The translations under genes were made by a program, and so were the position numbers. A model generated the notes under the pieces. The model worked only from the letters and a program-made list of their open reading frames with translations, was not told where the DNA came from and ran no database searches. Shown here piece by piece: positions 3,025 to 8,210 of a stretch of 64,000 nucleotides of DNA (position 1 is the first letter of the stretch; each line of letters opens with the position of its first letter). Origin of the DNA: Calothrix sp. NIES-2098 (GTDB lineage Bacteria; Cyanobacteriota; Cyanobacteriia; Cyanobacteriales; Nostocaceae). The DNA lies in NCBI GenBank assembly GCA_002368175.1, contig AP018172.1:93599-157598 (forward strand). Reading direction: 5' to 3'.

Positions 3025-3717
3025 TTATTGATGAACTGCACCATCAGGCATAATGGCTCCAGCTAAATTAGCGCCGATTAGTTTAACCAAAAGGCGCTCG
3101 CCAGAGCGAATCCGCGCGCCTGTCAAGTCGGCTCCCCGCAAGTCAGCACCGCTAAGATCTGCTCCGATTAAATTAGCCGAGCGCAAATTGGCTTCTCGGA
3201 GATCGGCTAAAAGTAGATTAGCTCTAAATAGATTTGCTTCCGATAAATTTGCACCTCTTAAATTTACTTTGTGCATAAAAGTATCGCTGAGATTCGCACC
3301 ACTCAAATTGGCAAAACTCAGGTTTCTTCCCGATAAATCTTTGTTGCTTAAATTTGCCCTACTAAAATCTTGTCCACTCAAATCAGGATTTTTTGGTGGT
3401 TGTTGATAGGGTGTTTCAGGTGGCTTTTTCGGTTGAGGTGGCGGCGAGTAAGTTGTATGTTGAGTATTTTGAGTATGCTGTGTATGTTGCTTATGATGTG
3501 TATGTTGATGCTTAAGTTTGAACGAACGCAATTTATCGCGTGCTTCGTTGAATGCCTTAATTTTTTCTTGTGCTTTTTGTTGTAAACGGTGATTGTCTTG
3601 GGGAATGCGATCGGGATGCCATACAAAGACCAAATCTTTATAAGCCTGGTTCACTTCCTCAAGTGTGGCACCAGGCTCTAATTCCAAGACTCTATAATAC
3701 CGTTCCAACTCGCTCAT
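3025..3717 (-). CDS. J-domain (DnaJ-like, HPD motif) protein fused to a His/Gln/Thr/Pro-rich linker and C-terminal pentapeptide repeats.
   Basis: The N-terminus YYRVLELEPGATLEEVNQAYKDLVFVWHPDRIP is a J domain with the HPD motif. It is followed by an HTQHTQ...PPPQPKKPP linker. The C-terminal ~110 aa are A(N/D)LXX pentapeptide repeats (ANLSGANLSD, ANLSEANLFRANLLLADLREANLRSANL...). Confidence 0.75.
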   Translation of the reverse strand: MSELERYYRVLELEPGATLEEVNQAYKDLVFVWHPDRIPQDNHRLQQKAQEKIKAFNEARDKLRSFKLKHQHTHHKQHTQHTQNTQHTTYSPPPQPKKPPETPYQQPPKNPDLSGQDFSRANLSNKDLSGRNLSFANLSGANLSDTFMHKVNLRGANLSEANLFRANLLLADLREANLRSANLIGADLSGADLRGADLTGARIRSGERLLVKLIGANLAGAIMPDGAVHQ

Positions 3718-4411: not shown

Positions 4412-4897
4412 CTATCCATTTCTCCATCGATTAATAGCTCTTAAATAAGCTGCCACTGGAATTTGATAAACTTCAATAAAAATCCAAACAATAATTGCTA
4501 AATGTAACAGAAAAGTTAATATAGTCCAGATATATGGTATCCAAGTAATAAGTTCGTGTGGAGATGGGGGAAAATTGTAAGCCACAATCCCAATTAAAGT
4601 TGTGGGCAAAAGTATAAAAGCGATCGCTGCTAACCCATAACCCCAACCCAGTTCCACTCCTTCTAACTGAGCTTCTGTCCAGCTAAAACCATTCCAACGC
4701 CAAACTAAGGGCGGTTGCCGAGAAGGCATCTTGATTTGCTGTTGTTCTAGGTTGACAGTAAAAATCTCTTGACAAAAGTCACAAGCCATCGCTTCCATTA
4801 ATGGCATATGAGTAATTTTACCAACGCGACAGACTGGGCAAGGGTAAACTCCGTGATAATCGAAAGATGTGGCTAGAATTTTAGAACGAGGCATCAT
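4412..4897 (-). CDS. Hypothetical membrane protein with an N-terminal Cys4 zinc-ribbon-like motif.
   Basis: The ORF is 161 aa. It has CPVC...CDFC near the N-terminus and two or three hydrophobic helices in the C-terminal half. No recognisable catalytic motif. Confidence 0.45.
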   Translation of the reverse strand: MMPRSKILATSFDYHGVYPCPVCRVGKITHMPLMEAMACDFCQEIFTVNLEQQQIKMPSRQPPLVWRWNGFSWTEAQLEGVELGWGYGLAAIAFILLPTTLIGIVAYNFPPSPHELITWIPYIWTILTFLLHLAIIVWIFIEVYQIPVAAYLRAINRWRNG

Positions 4898-5187
4898 AAA
4901 ACCTAGTAGCGCTAATAAGGTGATTGGGCTGCTGGGAAATTTTACGAGAATAATGAATTGTCCGATTTCTGAAGGTTCATCAATATCCCTTTACCCATGA
5001 CCCAAAATACTTGTAACTTTATATAATTTTTACGGTTATACGTCAGGAAAACGTCTTGACAGGCGCAATAGTACTGAGTTTAACCCTTTTTGGGGAGTTG
5101 TGGAGGTATTGACGCCACCAACTGCGTCTGTTATCTTGGCTTATATATAAGGTTTACATCAAAATAATCTACTTGCGCACAATAAAA

Positions 5188-5244
5188 ATGTTCAACAGCA
5201 AATCTTACTTTTATTTTTGGTTTAAGGCGGTTCACCGGCGGTGA
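5188..5244 (+). promoter_or_regulatory. Candidate leader peptide 1 (18 aa, MFNSKSYFYFWFKAVHRR) with six consecutive aromatic codons. Proposed to be an aromatic-amino-acid attenuation leader ORF.
   Basis: ATG at 5188 and TGA at 5242. Codons 7-12 read Tyr-Phe-Tyr-Phe-Trp-Phe. The ORF's 3' end (5227-5238) is the 5' arm of a 12-bp antiterminator stem that competes with terminator 1. No strong SD precedes it. Confidence 0.45.
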
Positions 5245-5276
5245 ATTAAGTTTCCTAATGGAAACCGCCCGGTGAA

Positions 5277-5303
5277 CCGCAGAGCCAACTCTGCGGTTTT
5301 TTT
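5277..5303 (+). terminator. Intrinsic terminator hairpin 1 (8-bp stem ccgcagag/ctctgcgg, loop ccaa, followed by 7 T). It overlaps the alternative antiterminator stem 5227-5238:5269-5280.
   Basis: GC-rich stem plus U-run read directly from the sequence. The stem's 5' side shares nucleotides 5277-5280 with the perfect 12-bp pairing gcggttcaccgg/ccggtgaaccgc, so the two structures are mutually exclusive. Confidence 0.55.
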
Positions 5304-5326
5304 GTTTTTAGGAGTATTTCATCGTC

Positions 5327-5389
5327 ATGGCCTATTTCGGTAGTTGGTTTTACGGCTTTTACTTTTGGCCCAGAGCAAGTTCCGGGTAG
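5327..5389 (+). promoter_or_regulatory. Candidate leader peptide 2 (20 aa, MAYFGSWFYGFYFWPRASSG) with 9 of 20 residues aromatic, preceded by an SD.
   Basis: AGGAG at 5310-5314 lies 12 nt upstream of the ATG at 5327; the stop TAG is at 5387-5389. The ORF end agttccggg (5378-5386) can pair with cccggaac (5419-5426), the 5' arm of terminator 2, forming an antiterminator. Confidence 0.5.
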
Positions 5390-5418
5390 ATAGCGTCATG
5401 CCGATGATTTAGAACGCG

Positions 5419-5453
5419 CCCGGAACTCTCAAGATGAGATTCCGGGTTTTTTT
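5419..5453 (+). terminator. Intrinsic terminator hairpin 2 (cccggaa...ttccggg stem followed by T8), about 45 nt upstream of the DAHP synthase start.
   Basis: A 7-bp perfect stem plus extension with a 7-nt loop, then TTTTTTTT at 5447-5454. It is mutually exclusive with the pairing to the leader ORF 2 end. Confidence 0.6.
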
Positions 5454-5498
5454 GTTAACAACTTCACTCTCATCACGTCAAACAAGGAGAATCTCACA

Positions 5499-6371
5499 AT
5501 GATTAATGCTCAACTCGCTGCTCAATCCCATCCTCACCACCAAACAATCGTCAAACTCTCAGAAACAGTCAGCTTCGGGGGAGAAGAGATAGTCATTATT
5601 GGTGGCCCCTGCACTGTTGAAAGCTTAGAGCAGATGGAAACAGTCGCCCAAAAGTTAGCCGCTGCACCCGTACAGGCTTTGCGGGGTGGTGTCTACAAAC
5701 CGCGGACATCTCCTTATGCTTTCCAAGGCATGGGTGAAGAAGGACTAGAAATTTTAGCGGCAGTGCGATCGCGCTACAATATCCCAGTTGTGACTGAAGT
5801 CATGTCAATTGCCCAAATTGAAATAGTGGCAGCTCGCGCTGATATGCTGCAAATTGGTAGCCGGAATATGCAAAACTTCGACTTGCTCAAAGCTTTGGGA
5901 CAAGCCAACAAGCCAATACTACTCAAGCGCGGTTTAGCGGCGACAATTGAAGAATTCGTCATGGCAGCTGAATATATTTTGAGCCACGGTAATCCTGATG
6001 TGGTACTTTGTGAAAGAGGGATTCGTAGCTTTGATAATTACACCCGCAATGTACTTGACTTAGGAGCAGTAGCAGCTCTCAAGCAAATTACTCATCTACC
6101 AGTGATTGTAGATCCATCCCATGCCGTAGGTAAACGAGAATTAGTAGCACCTATGGCTAAGGCTGCTGTTGCTTGTGGAGCAGATGGCTTAATTATCGAG
6201 TGTCATCCCCAACCAGAAAAGTCTGTTTCCGATGCACGTCAAGCACTATCTTTAGAAGATATGGTGAATTTGGTTGATAGTTTAAAGCCTATAGCCGCAG
6301 CAGTTGGGCGGAATATATCAGAATCTATCGGGGTAGGTTTAAAAACAGCCCCGATTTTTTGTGCTGCTTAA
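5499..6371 (+). CDS. aroF: 3-deoxy-7-phosphoheptulonate (DAHP) synthase, class I-beta (AroF/KDO8PS-like short form).
   Basis: The 290-aa protein has [30 protein letters not shown] and DPSHA motifs typical of the Thermotoga/Pyrococcus-type DAHPS. An SD (AGGAG) at 5485-5489 precedes the ATG at 5499. Confidence 0.85.
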
Positions 6372-6680
6372 ATTTTAGAAAAAATCTAAGTAACGGACTG
6401 ACACAGCTAAAATAATGCACTAAAAAATGTTCGTAGTTGCGCTTTAGCGCCTTCTAAACAATAAATTTAATGCCAAACTTTAGTTGTGTCACACCAGTAG
6501 CGCGCAATGCTCTAACCCAATGCACCAAAACCTTTGAATAGTGCGTTATGTCAAAAGCTAACGCAACGACAATAAAGCAAAAGCAACATCCACACTGCTT
6601 TTTGCCTCCCTATATGTATTCAAAAATCAAATATTAAGTCATAAATTTCTGTCTTGAAAAAAAGTCACAAGGCAGGGGAA

Positions 6681-6928
6681 TAGCAATTGATTACTCCAAA
6701 ATCGCAAATGTAGTATCAAAAATCGCAAATGTAGTATGCGAAACGGCAATTGAGTACTCGAAAATCGCAATTGATGACTCCGAAATAGCAATTGATCGCT
6801 CCGAAATGGCAATTGATTGCCCCGAAATAGTAATTGAGTACTCCAAAATGGCAAATGTGGTATGCGAAACAGCAACTGAGTACTCGAAAATCGCAATTGT
6901 GACTACCAAAATAGTAATTGCGGCTAGC
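6681..6928. repeat. Tandem array of about 12 copies of a 21-22-bp unit, approximately GAAAT(N)GCAATTG(N5)TCC, with a palindromic CAATTG core. Same family as 30275-30483.
   Basis: The periodicity was read directly, for example gaaatagcaattgatcgctcc/gaaatggcaattgattgcccc/gaaatagtaattgagtactcc. ORFs called here on both strands (6639-6896, 6691-6909) are artefacts of the repeat. Confidence 0.8.
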
Positions 6929-6959: not shown

Positions 6960-8210
6960 TAGGACTTACGCAATTGGCACAAATAGCAGGCAGGGCAAAG
7001 CCCTGACACGCGACAATATAAATCAAACCAAGCACATAAAAATACTTGGGCGCTTCAGTTGCTGAATTAAATAATTAGAAAGCAAGTTATGCTTGATTTG
7101 ATAGATAGTTTTGCCAGTTCTATAGGCTAAATTCTTTAACCTAACCCAAACCAACATTGCACAAGCAATATGATTTCTTTGGAGTCTAGCTTTCCGACAC
7201 TGGCAAGATTCAATGCCAGTTAGTTGTTTAATTTCCCTGTGAAACTCCTCTATTTTCCAACGAATTTTACACACCTGTTGTACAACATCCGTGGAACTTT
7301 GAGATAAATCGTTAGTGGCGACATAATCCGTTCTGTTGGTAGAAACAGTAACCCGGAATAGTTTCACTTTTTTATTAGCTGGGAATCCTTTAATTTTTAT
7401 GATTTTACCACAGTCTAATTCTTCTTGGTTCCATTCTAATAATTCAATCCGTTTATATTTTTCTTGACCAAATGTATCATCAACTAAACGATTATTTTTT
7501 AAAGGGCAATAATAAATTTTGTCTAAGCTATCAATATATAGCATTAAACTGTGTACCGCATACCATGTATCCATCAAAACAGTATCAAATGGTAAAAGCT
7601 TATGATACACAAGGTTTTGGAGCATATCTTTCACATGGTCTATCTTGGTTTTCCCATCGACATCAGGATTAAAAATTCGATAATCTATGACCCAAAATCT
7701 TTGAAGTGTAGGGTTGACATACACGCAGCTAACTACACCAATGCCTTTCAGGACACCATGCTCATTACCACTATATTGTCTTCTGACTATTTCTATTTCT
7801 TCAGAATACTTTTTATCTAAAACGCTATCATCAAATATGATGTAACCATTTTCATCAGACTCAACGACCTCTTTCACGTTATCCCATAGTAAACGAGGTG
7901 TTAATTTTTCGGTTTTCAAATAATAGTTAATTGCGTCATGACTAATACTCTCTAAATGCTCTGCCAAATTGGTAATTGTATAATTAATTTGACTACTTAA
8001 TAAATATTGGCAGTAATTAAGCTTAGTAAATCTCATTACCCTTAGCGAAATTTATCTAATATAACCTCTACCTATTTTCTCACGAATATTTCGATAGTAC
8101 TTCCAAGACAGCGACTTCTATTACGAAGGCAAAGCTTTCAAAATCAGATTTAATTAATACATATGTACTATGAACTAACGATCGCATTGTGCCAGTTGCG
8201 TAAGTCCTGA
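6960..8210 (-). mobile_element. Insertion sequence copy A (1251 bp) with an imperfect ~22-bp terminal inverted repeat TAGGACTTACGCAA(T/C)TGGCACAA and a 4-bp direct repeat TAAT at both flanks.
   Basis: The element is identical to the copy at 42904-44154 in inverted orientation. Its ends were defined by where the two copies diverge from their flanks. TAAT occurs at 6956-6959 and again at 8211-8214. Confidence 0.8.
7023..8036 (-). CDS. DDE transposase of the IS (337 aa), IS4/IS5-superfamily-like.
   Basis: Candidate DDE residues: D in IIFDDSVLDKKY, D in TVLMDTWYAVH, and E in WKIEEFHREIKQLTG (the YREK-like region). The protein is 100 percent identical to the ORF at 43078-44091. Confidence 0.8.
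   Translation of the reverse strand: MRFTKLNYCQYLLSSQINYTITNLAEHLESISHDAINYYLKTEKLTPRLLWDNVKEVVESDENGYIIFDDSVLDKKYSEEIEIVRRQYSGNEHGVLKGIGVVSCVYVNPTLQRFWVIDYRIFNPDVDGKTKIDHVKDMLQNLVYHKLLPFDTVLMDTWYAVHSLMLYIDSLDKIYYCPLKNNRLVDDTFGQEKYKRIELLEWNQEELDCGKIIKIKGFPANKKVKLFRVTVSTNRTDYVATNDLSQSSTDVVQQVCKIRWKIEEFHREIKQLTGIESCQCRKARLQRNHIACAMLVWVRLKNLAYRTGKTIYQIKHNLLSNYLIQQLKRPSIFMCLV

Follow-up and report, generated by a model that had tools for sequence, protein, structure and literature searches.

The DNA upstream of the gene for DAHP synthase (3-deoxy-7-phosphoheptulonate synthase) in the cyanobacterium Calothrix sp. NIES-2098 probably encodes a two-stage, ribosome-mediated transcription attenuator that senses the supply of aromatic aminoacyl-tRNA, a reading drawn from sequence comparison and RNA folding. 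The element occupies roughly positions 5160-5500 of a 64,000-nucleotide stretch of contig AP018172.1, which we call the window and number from its first letter. Its parts, all on the forward (+) strand, are a pair of small open reading frames (ORFs) rich in Tyr, Phe and Trp codons, each coupled to an intrinsic terminator and to an antiterminator pairing that competes with it. The original prediction likened this arrangement to the leader-peptide attenuation of trp, phe and his operons, and everything that follows from that comparison and could be computed (selection on the coding sequence, the alternative helices, folding around a ribosome footprint, linkage to the gene) came out as expected. 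The reading gains further support because DAHP synthase is the entry step to exactly the three amino acids that the leaders encode. The observation goes far beyond chance; conservation in about 150 independent loci settles that matter.

In the proposed mechanism, a ribosome would translate leader ORF 1 while RNA polymerase moves ahead of it. With Tyr-, Phe- and Trp-tRNAs fully charged, the ribosome would reach the stop codon at 5242 and cover 5227-5242, blocking antiterminator 1; the hairpin at 5274-5299 would then form, and polymerase would stop in the U-tract. With charged aromatic tRNA scarce, the ribosome would stall on the Tyr-Phe-Tyr-Phe codons at 5206-5217, and 5227-5242 would pair with 5264-5280; this antiterminator would sequester the base of terminator 1, and polymerase would read on. 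Leader ORF 2 would repeat the test with a ribosome of its own, an antiterminator formed by 5373-5387 with 5418-5430 and a terminator at 5418-5453, and only transcripts passing both checkpoints would reach DAHP synthase. Should no ribosome engage, a further helix, P0, would block antiterminator 2, and untranslated transcripts that had slipped past unit 1 would be terminated at unit 2. Since the two checkpoints stand in series, output should rise steeply as any of the three aromatic amino acids falls. That the ORFs are translated, that transcription terminates in the U-tracts, that the switch answers to tRNA charging and that two stages bring a benefit are inferences.

Leader ORF 1 (5188-5244) encodes MFNSKSYFYFWFKAVHRR and ends in TGA at 5242-5244, while leader ORF 2 (5327-5389) encodes MAYFGSWFYGFYFWPRASSG and ends in TAG at 5387-5389. 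Both stand where the original prediction had placed two aromatic-rich mini-ORFs, and both prove to be conserved as coding sequence. The regulatory codon run of the first (5206-5223) reads TAC TTT TAT TTT TGG TTT (Y F Y F W F), six aromatic codons out of six without interruption; that of the second (5333-5368) reads Y F g s W F Y g F Y F W, nine aromatic codons out of twelve. An AGGAG at 5310-5314, directly 3′ of the U-tract of terminator 1, is the likely Shine-Dalgarno sequence of leader 2; its position was likewise part of the original prediction and is borne out by the sequence. An (A)AGGAG is kept at this place in Nostocales and is absent in Microcoleus. Runs of this kind are rare in the window: a six-frame scan of its 64 kb returned four ORF tails with at least six aromatic residues in eight, two of which are leaders 1 and 2. 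A window-wide scan for further amino-acid-rich, leader-like ORFs returned nothing convincing.

The mini-ORFs and their stems were also expected upstream of orthologous genes in other Nostocales, which proved to be the case there and in other orders as well. The genome set consisted of the best 80 of at least 567 matches to the enzyme in one-genome-per-species (GTDB) collections; two of these had too little upstream DNA, leaving 78 usable loci. Leader 1 was recognisable in 76 of the 78 and leader 2 in all 78, in the same order; the units typically lie 85 nt apart, and leader 2 typically precedes the gene by about 107 nt. The hosts include many Nostocales genera, Microcoleus, Oscillatoria, Potamolinea, Coleofasciculus, Stenomitos and other Leptolyngbyaceae, and the pleurocapsalean Hydrococcus. 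The same layout was found in four further contigs reached through protein matches, as well as in Nostoc/Anabaena sp. PCC 7120 and Anabaena variabilis ATCC 29413. On the PCC 7120 chromosome (BA000019.2), the predicted promoter lies at about 3692637-3692665, leader 1 at 3692708-3692770, leader 2 at 3692856-3692918 and the ATG of DAHP synthase at 3693111. The protein searches covered the best 120 matches each, all with at least 78% identity, a sample outside which Synechocystis, Synechococcus and Prochlorococcus fall. Apparent exceptions were resolved on inspection: both units are present in a Tolypothrix campylonemoides locus (L040), and one aromatic codon each is changed in two others (L022 and L059). 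The T. campylonemoides locus also has an N-masked insertion between terminator 2 and DAHP synthase (L040:1500-2503), flanked by a duplicated segment of about 70 nt and probably a mobile element.

Metagenome contigs were scanned with a degenerate codon pattern for the core of leader 2, which returned 95 stretches. The full leader format was found in 72 of them, the others being chance matches inside unrelated sequence. Downstream of 69 of the 72 lay a match to DAHP synthase, with about 51-94% identity to the window's enzyme (the lowest values coming from very short fragments); two of the other three broke off too early, and the third (L134) probably matches by chance. A leader-1-type ORF lay upstream in 65 of the 72, and five were too short to tell. 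This leader 2-pattern scan of metagenome contigs found no leader before any gene other than DAHP synthase, so the element is a family with an exclusive association to that gene. A natural disruption was also seen, in a Microcoleus-type locus (contig ORBV01002328.1; L113:2980-3580): unrelated DNA that ends in a small hairpin has taken the place of unit 1 and of the beginning of leader 2, and all that precedes DAHP synthase is the 3′ remainder of leader 2 together with terminator 2.

Within the orthologous loci, the leaders behave as sequences that are read codon by codon. Leader 1 starts with ATG in 75 of 76 loci and is 18 amino acids long in 67 of 76; leader 2 (78 loci) starts with ATG in 72, GTG in four and TTG in two, and is 20 amino acids long in 53. 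For the tabulation of codons, all sequences were anchored on their stop codons and unique sequences were counted. Across the 12 aromatic core columns there were 179 non-consensus codons, 84 of them synonymous (TAC/TAT, TTT/TTC) and 77 coding for another aromatic residue, which together make 161 of the 179. Only 18 were non-aromatic, several of these being register shifts caused by one-codon indels. Positions in the aromatic run swap freely among F, Y and W, and two-base swaps between aromatic codons occur as well, for instance TTT to TAC in 15 sequences. At most two of the nine single-base neighbours of any aromatic codon are themselves aromatic; given that yardstick, changes that are almost all synonymous or aromatic indicate selection on the class of amino acid or, equivalently, of tRNA, and so indicate that the ORFs are read as codons. 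Moreover, alignment gaps inside both ORFs are multiples of three, and the stop codon stays at a fixed place relative to the antiterminator arm. On the 3′ side of the aromatic run, conservation tracks the RNA and not the amino acids. Of the 65 unique sequences of unit 1, 64 have G as the third base of the final sense codon, whose residue varies among E, G, Q and R, and 64 use TGA as the stop; in unit 2 the Ser-Ser-Gly codons double as the arm of antiterminator 2.

These patterns bear on the idea that the region is a structured non-coding RNA (a riboswitch, or the target of a TRAP- or PyrR-type protein) whose ORFs are by-products of U-rich sequence. The RNA structures are indeed stable and conserved, and the U-rich tracts could be protein-binding sites. 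Such an RNA would not, however, account for conserved start and stop codons, ORF length and frame, for indels in multiples of three, or for substitutions that keep the amino-acid class even where two bases change. In addition, neither the region nor the window has an Rfam match, the alignment holds no conserved multi-helix junction resembling a ligand pocket, and the aromatic run is unpaired in consensus folds. We regard this explanation as extremely unlikely.

Folding of the leader region, one of the checks that the original prediction had proposed, showed it to be stable and recovered the alternative helices: 5160-5500 folds at -103.8 kcal/mol compared with -81.3 +/- 5.4 kcal/mol for shuffled sequence (z -4.2), better than all 100 shuffles. 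Both terminators and the pairings that compete with them are present where they had been placed, and they are conserved across the orthologous loci. Terminator 1 (5274-5309, -17.7 kcal/mol) combines a hairpin of 11 bp (5274-5299, GAACCGCAGAG ccaa CTCTGCGGTTT) with a U-tract at 5297-5309, the hairpin being followed by TTTTTTTGTTTTT. Terminator 2 (5418-5453, -18.6 kcal/mol) consists of a hairpin at 5418-5447 (GCCCGGAAcTCTCA aga TGAGATTCCGGGT) and a U-tract of seven U at 5447-5453. The 5′ arm of antiterminator 1 (5227-5242, GCGGTTCACCGGCGGT) falls within the closing codons of ORF 1 and takes in the stop codon's first base, and the 3′ arm (5264-5280, ACCGCCCGGTGAACCGC) has 7 nt (5274-5280) in common with the 5′ arm of terminator 1; the pairing is worth -34.1 kcal/mol (z -5.8). 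A small internal hairpin (5252-5263, TTCC taat GGAA) sits in its loop. The 5′ arm of antiterminator 2 (5373-5387, GAG..AGTTCCGGGT) spans the Ser-Ser-Gly codons and extends to the stop codon's first base; its 3′ arm (5418-5430) takes up the outer 5′ arm of terminator 2 (8 bp, 5418-5425) together with the greater part of the inner stem, and the pairing is worth -21.5 kcal/mol (z -3.0).

Conservation and covariation of these stems were a second proposed check, which antiterminator 1 and both terminators passed with compensatory changes; antiterminator 2 is conserved only. The core helix of antiterminator 1 is 84.8% paired in 76 sequences, with six pairs changed on both sides. Four of these read A-U 58/G-C 18, G-C 54/C-G 17/A-U 2, C-G 69/U-A 3 and G-C 71/A-U 2, and the other two are weaker (G-U 15/C-G 9/U-A 2/G-C 1; G-C 14/C-G 1). 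No shuffle reached its covariation score or its count of doubly changed cells, and slid registers were all much worse. The internal hairpin at 5252-5263, which matches one helix of the covariation analysis, is 83.9% paired, and three of its four pairs have changed on both sides. Pairing in terminator 1 reaches 95.3% over 76 sequences, with compensatory exchanges of A-U 72/G-C 4 and G-C 42/U-A 13. One alignment column is G in four sequences, forming U-G in antiterminator 1 and G-C in terminator 1, as would be expected because the shared segment is under two constraints. The extra loci supplied further exchanges (CCGG/CCGG to CCAG/CTGG; CCGCAG/CTGCGG to CCGTAG/CTACGG). Terminator 2 is 97.1% paired in 78 sequences, its closing pair being G-C in 41 and A-U in 29. 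Antiterminator 2 is 86% paired in 78 sequences, and its segment is constrained in three ways, by codons, antiterminator and terminator. Unguided RNAalifold recovered both terminators and left the aromatic runs unpaired in its consensus folds.

RNAalifold also proposed two local hairpins. One, 5229-5235 with 5241-5247, involves part of the antiterminator 1 arm and the stop-codon region; the other, 5364-5371 with 5384-5390, involves the Trp-Pro codons and part of the antiterminator 2 arm. Both are candidates for a pause or anti-antiterminator hairpin.

The distance from terminator 2 to the start of the gene ranges from 72 to 433 nt across loci, often through inserted repeats. Such variability argues for a transcriptional mechanism and against masking of the ribosome-binding site of the gene. 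The repeats in this spacer are tandem heptamer-like sequences (CCCCAGT/CCCCAAT, GGGGACT, AAAATTC), seen in Nostoc PCC 7120 (L181:1330-1490) and in several other Nostoc loci, and they account for most of the length variation.

The dependence of each unit on ribosome position was modelled by folding nascent RNA in which the bases under a ribosome could not pair, the footprint reaching from 15 nt on the 5′ side to 11 nt on the 3′ side of the A-site codon's first base. In the decision-point version of the model, the transcript is cut before the 3′ arm of the terminator emerges. For unit 1, the probability of antiterminator 1 was 0.92 with no ribosome, 0.92 with the A site at 5206-5215, 0.67 at 5218, 0.41 at 5221 and 0.00 at the stop codon. 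For unit 2, the probabilities of antiterminator 2 and of P0 were 0.04 and 0.95 with no ribosome. They became 0.93-0.98 and 0.05 or less with the A site at 5333-5360, 0.00 and 0.99 at 5363, 0.38 and 0.61 at 5366, 0.03 or less and 0.95-0.97 at 5369-5372, and 0.00 and 0.60 at the stop codon. In both modelled units, therefore, an early stall gives the antiterminator and a ribosome at the stop codon gives the terminator, in agreement with the claim that stalling frees the antiterminator and that a ribosome reaching the stop codon masks it. When untranslated, unit 1 of the window is open and unit 2 closed in the same model. With the full terminator present, at equilibrium, unit 1 still switches.

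The same trend was seen across loci. In 75 of them, we calculated the probability that the 5′ arm of the terminator is paired at the decision point, a noisy measure that indicates a trend only. A stall at the first core aromatic codon gave 0.77 for unit 1 and 0.89 for unit 2, a mid-run codon gave 0.71 and 0.77, and the stop codon gave 0.52 and 0.44.

P0 pairs 5317-5329 (TTTCATCGTCATG), which includes the start codon of leader 2, with 5396-5408 (TCATGCCGATGAT), just after the leader 2 stop codon and inside the loop of antiterminator 2. In Microcoleus the two strands are still complementary, with unrelated sequence (GCGAAAACAGC / GCTGTcTTTTCGC), and more variants occur in other clades. In a partner-swap control with 24 divergent loci, native strands paired at a mean of -8.0 kcal/mol and crossed strands at -5.7 kcal/mol, and none of 10,000 permutations reached the native mean. 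In the folding model of the window, P0 acts as an anti-antiterminator for unit 2, and unit 1 has no such helix, so read-through of unit 1 is predicted when it is untranslated. A candidate helix between the start region and the post-stop segment of unit 1 was tried and rejected, its native and crossed energies (-7.9 and -7.5 kcal/mol) not differing significantly (p = 0.11). The original view of a two-stage device thus stands in that both units switch in the model; the stages are not equivalent, with P0 only in unit 2, and antiterminator 2 wins only kinetically.

The two units resemble one another. Aligned against each other, unit 1 (5188-5309) and unit 2 (5327-5453) score 53, compared with 21.4 +/- 8.6 for shuffled sequence and above all 500 shuffles, and they have in common an arm motif resembling GTTC(A)CCGG / CCGG(T)GAAC. 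This likeness of sequence suggests an old tandem duplication; convergence under the same constraints is also compatible with it.

Several findings weigh against a two-stage attenuator of the kind proposed, or limit how it could work. Leader 1 has no obvious Shine-Dalgarno sequence in the window, and leader 1 of Nostoc PCC 7120 starts with GTG. The core of antiterminator 2 (AGTTCCGGG / CCCGGAACT) is nearly invariant and shows almost no covariation, so covariation is uninformative there. As an equilibrium switch, unit 2 had to be rejected: with its full terminator present, the terminator wins in every ribosome state, which means that antitermination there must be kinetic, the antiterminator forming first. 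Stalling on the final one or two aromatic codons in either run would mask the antiterminator arm, so not all aromatic codons can be sensing codons. P0, in which covariation is weak, is heterogeneous, being weak or absent in some loci, and the no-ribosome state of unit 2 varies among the 75 loci, with a mean of 0.68 for the pairing of the terminator arm. Finally, the genome set consists of close relatives of the enzyme (at least 76% identity), and the metagenome fragments reach down to about 70%.

The sensor might be the nascent peptide instead of tRNA charging, through arrest in the exit tunnel (above all at W-F-Y-G-F-Y-F-W-P), perhaps promoted by a free aromatic amino acid or another small molecule in a TnaC-like manner. 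Arrest peptides are often rich in Trp and Pro, and leader 2 is unusually conserved as a peptide, including a Pro after the last Trp (60 of 72 sequences; codon CCC in 52 of 72). This conservation on the 3′ side of the run is explained by the RNA, however, since the CCC pairs with GGG in the predicted local hairpin and Ser-Ser-Gly is the antiterminator arm. The interchange of F, Y and W fits the sensing of codons, not a specific contact in the tunnel, and a ribosome arrested where the run ends would cover the antiterminator arm. Arrest by an abundant product would, moreover, be expected to raise expression of the biosynthetic gene, which is the wrong sign. A sensor of the TnaC type would call for specific invariant arrest residues, arrest at or next to the stop codon and induction by an abundant ligand; in these leaders the aromatic positions interchange, and next to the stop codon of unit 1 it is the nucleotides and not the residues that are fixed. 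Peptide sensing is thus very unlikely, and codon-based attenuation remains the reading that we prefer.

A different possibility accepts the attenuator and adds to it: terminated leader RNAs, peptides or both might also act in trans, like the rnTrpL RNA and peTrpL peptide of Sinorhizobium. An ample supply of aromatic amino acids would let two short terminated RNAs (about 160 and 150 nt) build up, and a role for these RNAs would help to explain the very high conservation and the tandem layout, the sequence of unit 2 being more conserved than attenuation alone seems to need. Dual-function attenuator products are also reported to have precedent (PMC7298713). All conserved segments can, on the other hand, be assigned to codons or to alternative helices, and the leader 2-pattern scan of metagenome contigs never found the element away from DAHP synthase. 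An additional action in trans is therefore unlikely.

Attenuation of this kind is well known outside cyanobacteria. The enterobacterial attenuators (trpL, pheL-pheA, pheM-pheST, hisL, leuL, thrL and ilvL) likewise have a short ORF rich in codons for the end product, whose 3′ end overlaps an antiterminator arm. The antiterminator competes with an intrinsic terminator upstream of a biosynthetic gene, and a ribosome at the stop codon leads to termination while a stalled one leads to read-through. Termination in the absence of translation, attributed to the 1:2 pairing in trp, would have its counterpart in the predicted anti-antiterminator of unit 2 in the window. Unlike those systems, the cyanobacterial element has two complete attenuators in series, each with its own ORF; its codons mix three amino acids instead of repeating one; and its target is the common entry enzyme and not a terminal branch, in a host of the phylum Cyanobacteria. 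Unit 1 also lacks an anti-antiterminator, and that of unit 2 uses the translation start region and not the segment with the regulatory codons. There is, furthermore, no likeness in sequence or covariance model to any Rfam leader family. A scan of the whole window at Rfam gathering thresholds gave no match (Trp_leader, Phe_leader, His_leader, Leu_leader and Thr_leader included), and in 4700-5800 a permissive cmscan yielded just four matches, each scoring far under its threshold and none of them a leader family.

Tandem T-boxes and riboswitches, which sharpen or combine responses, resemble the element in having two sensing modules in series in one 5′ leader, as does mgtCBR of Salmonella. The two mgtCBR ORFs reportedly sense different signals and are said to lack a canonical hairpin-plus-U-tract terminator each; here, unlike in mgtCBR, the two modules look like diverged duplicates with the same three kinds of codon. 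The mgtCBR leader carries the tandem attenuators mgtM and mgtP, with two sensing ORFs in one leader (PMC3641672).

Two systems upstream of DAHP synthase genes come closer in function. In Corynebacterium glutamicum, the aroR leader peptide (Phe-Tyr-Phe) controls an operon that includes the aroF DAHP synthase gene (Neshat et al., 2014, summarised in PMC11802643). According to that review, transcription rises when ribosomes stall at the Phe and Tyr codons, and the system responds to Phe limitation and not to Tyr limitation (PMC11802643). It thus also places an aromatic leader peptide upstream of an operon containing a DAHP synthase gene. As the review describes it, it differs in being actinobacterial, with a single leader and three aromatic codons, where the cyanobacterial element has 6 + 9 aromatic codons, Trp included, and two terminators. 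In Acholeplasma, uORFC-13-1 upstream of aroF was proposed on comparative grounds to be a ribosome-mediated attenuator, in Tenericutes only and with 24 representatives (Brewer et al., 2021; PMC8632094). It too has an upstream ORF (uORF) with Phe codons next to an intrinsic terminator before a DAHP synthase gene, and it is unlike the present element in being a single uORF, not a tandem, whose U-run codes for at least one Phe. With aroR-aroF established and uORFC-13-1 proposed, the initial statement that attenuation of a DAHP synthase is at most rarely described needs correction in that such attenuation has precedents. For cyanobacteria the corresponding statement agrees with the literature: a 2016 comparative study reported 'no reliable data' for ribosome-mediated attenuation in this phylum (PMC4833913), and our full-text literature search turned up neither a DAHP synthase leader nor any leader-peptide attenuator described from cyanobacteria. 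What is new is consequently the sequence family, the serial double architecture with non-equivalent stages, the mixed regulatory codons and the phylum; the attenuation logic itself is known.

The regulated gene (5499-6371, 290 aa) encodes a DAHP synthase of type I-beta, with a match to Pfam PF00793 (DAHP_synth_1) at E 1.8e-78 and NCBIfam scores of 368 bits for TIGR01361 (cut-off 268) and 408 bits for NF006421. Since only profile positions 70-337 of NF006421 are matched, the enzyme comprises the core and is without the N-terminal extension of some type I-beta enzymes. Its sequence and that of the Calothrix sp. NIES-2098 protein are 100% identical. A consensus scan predicted a sigma-70-type promoter at 5109-5137 (+), with TTGACG (-35, 5109-5114), a 17-nt spacer and TATCTT (-10, 5132-5137). 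A TTGAC[AGT]-17/18-TAnnnT pair occurs in 70 of 76 orthologous loci, and the -10 element mostly ends 45-50 nt before the start of leader 1. From this sequence, transcription would start near 5144 and give a leader of about 355 nt.

Around the element and its gene, a divergent gene on the reverse strand (4412-4897) encodes a protein of 161 aa that has two CxxC motifs and segments predicted to lie in the membrane, and that matches nothing in Pfam or NCBIfam. In Nostoc PCC 7120 the gene in the corresponding place before the DAHP synthase leader has a product with 81% identity to it, which makes it a conserved neighbour. Farther away, a reverse-strand gene at 3025-3717 encodes an N-terminal DnaJ domain and C-terminal pentapeptide repeats joined by a low-complexity linker rich in His, Gln, Thr and Pro. 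Just downstream of DAHP synthase lies a tandem repeat (6679-6920) of a 21-nt unit (AATAGCAATTGAGTACTCCAA) in about 11.5 copies with a 73% match, with super-periods of 42 and 63 nt. Adjoining this array is an insertion sequence, with a reverse-strand ORF for a DDE-family transposase (7023-8036, 337 aa; PF01609, E 1.6e-9).

Taken together, the findings allow a broader reading, for which we put the chances at slightly below even. The element would be the first well-supported leader-peptide transcription attenuator in cyanobacteria, a cascade of two diverged and non-equivalent duplicates (stage 1 open and stage 2 closed when untranslated) that demands two successive stalls on mixed Tyr, Phe and Trp codons. 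Such a cascade would be ancient, because it is common to Nostocales, Oscillatoriales, Coleofasciculales, some Leptolyngbyaceae and Pleurocapsales, and it would possibly be the main feedback control of a DAHP synthase without an N-terminal extension.

A strongly conserved cyanobacterial case would show that transcription-translation coupling is used for amino-acid sensing in this phylum too. The occurrence of the element in the genetically tractable strains Nostoc PCC 7120 and A. variabilis makes it directly testable, and for annotation it is a ready-made new RNA/uORF family for databases. The aromatic pathway is a target of cyanobacterial engineering, where deleting or tuning the leader should de-repress DAHP synthase and where the leader could also serve as a native sensor of aromatic amino-acid status. 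For the organisms that carry it, a serial double attenuator with mixed codons would be one switch that integrates three end products at the entry to their pathway, with duplication sharpening the response.

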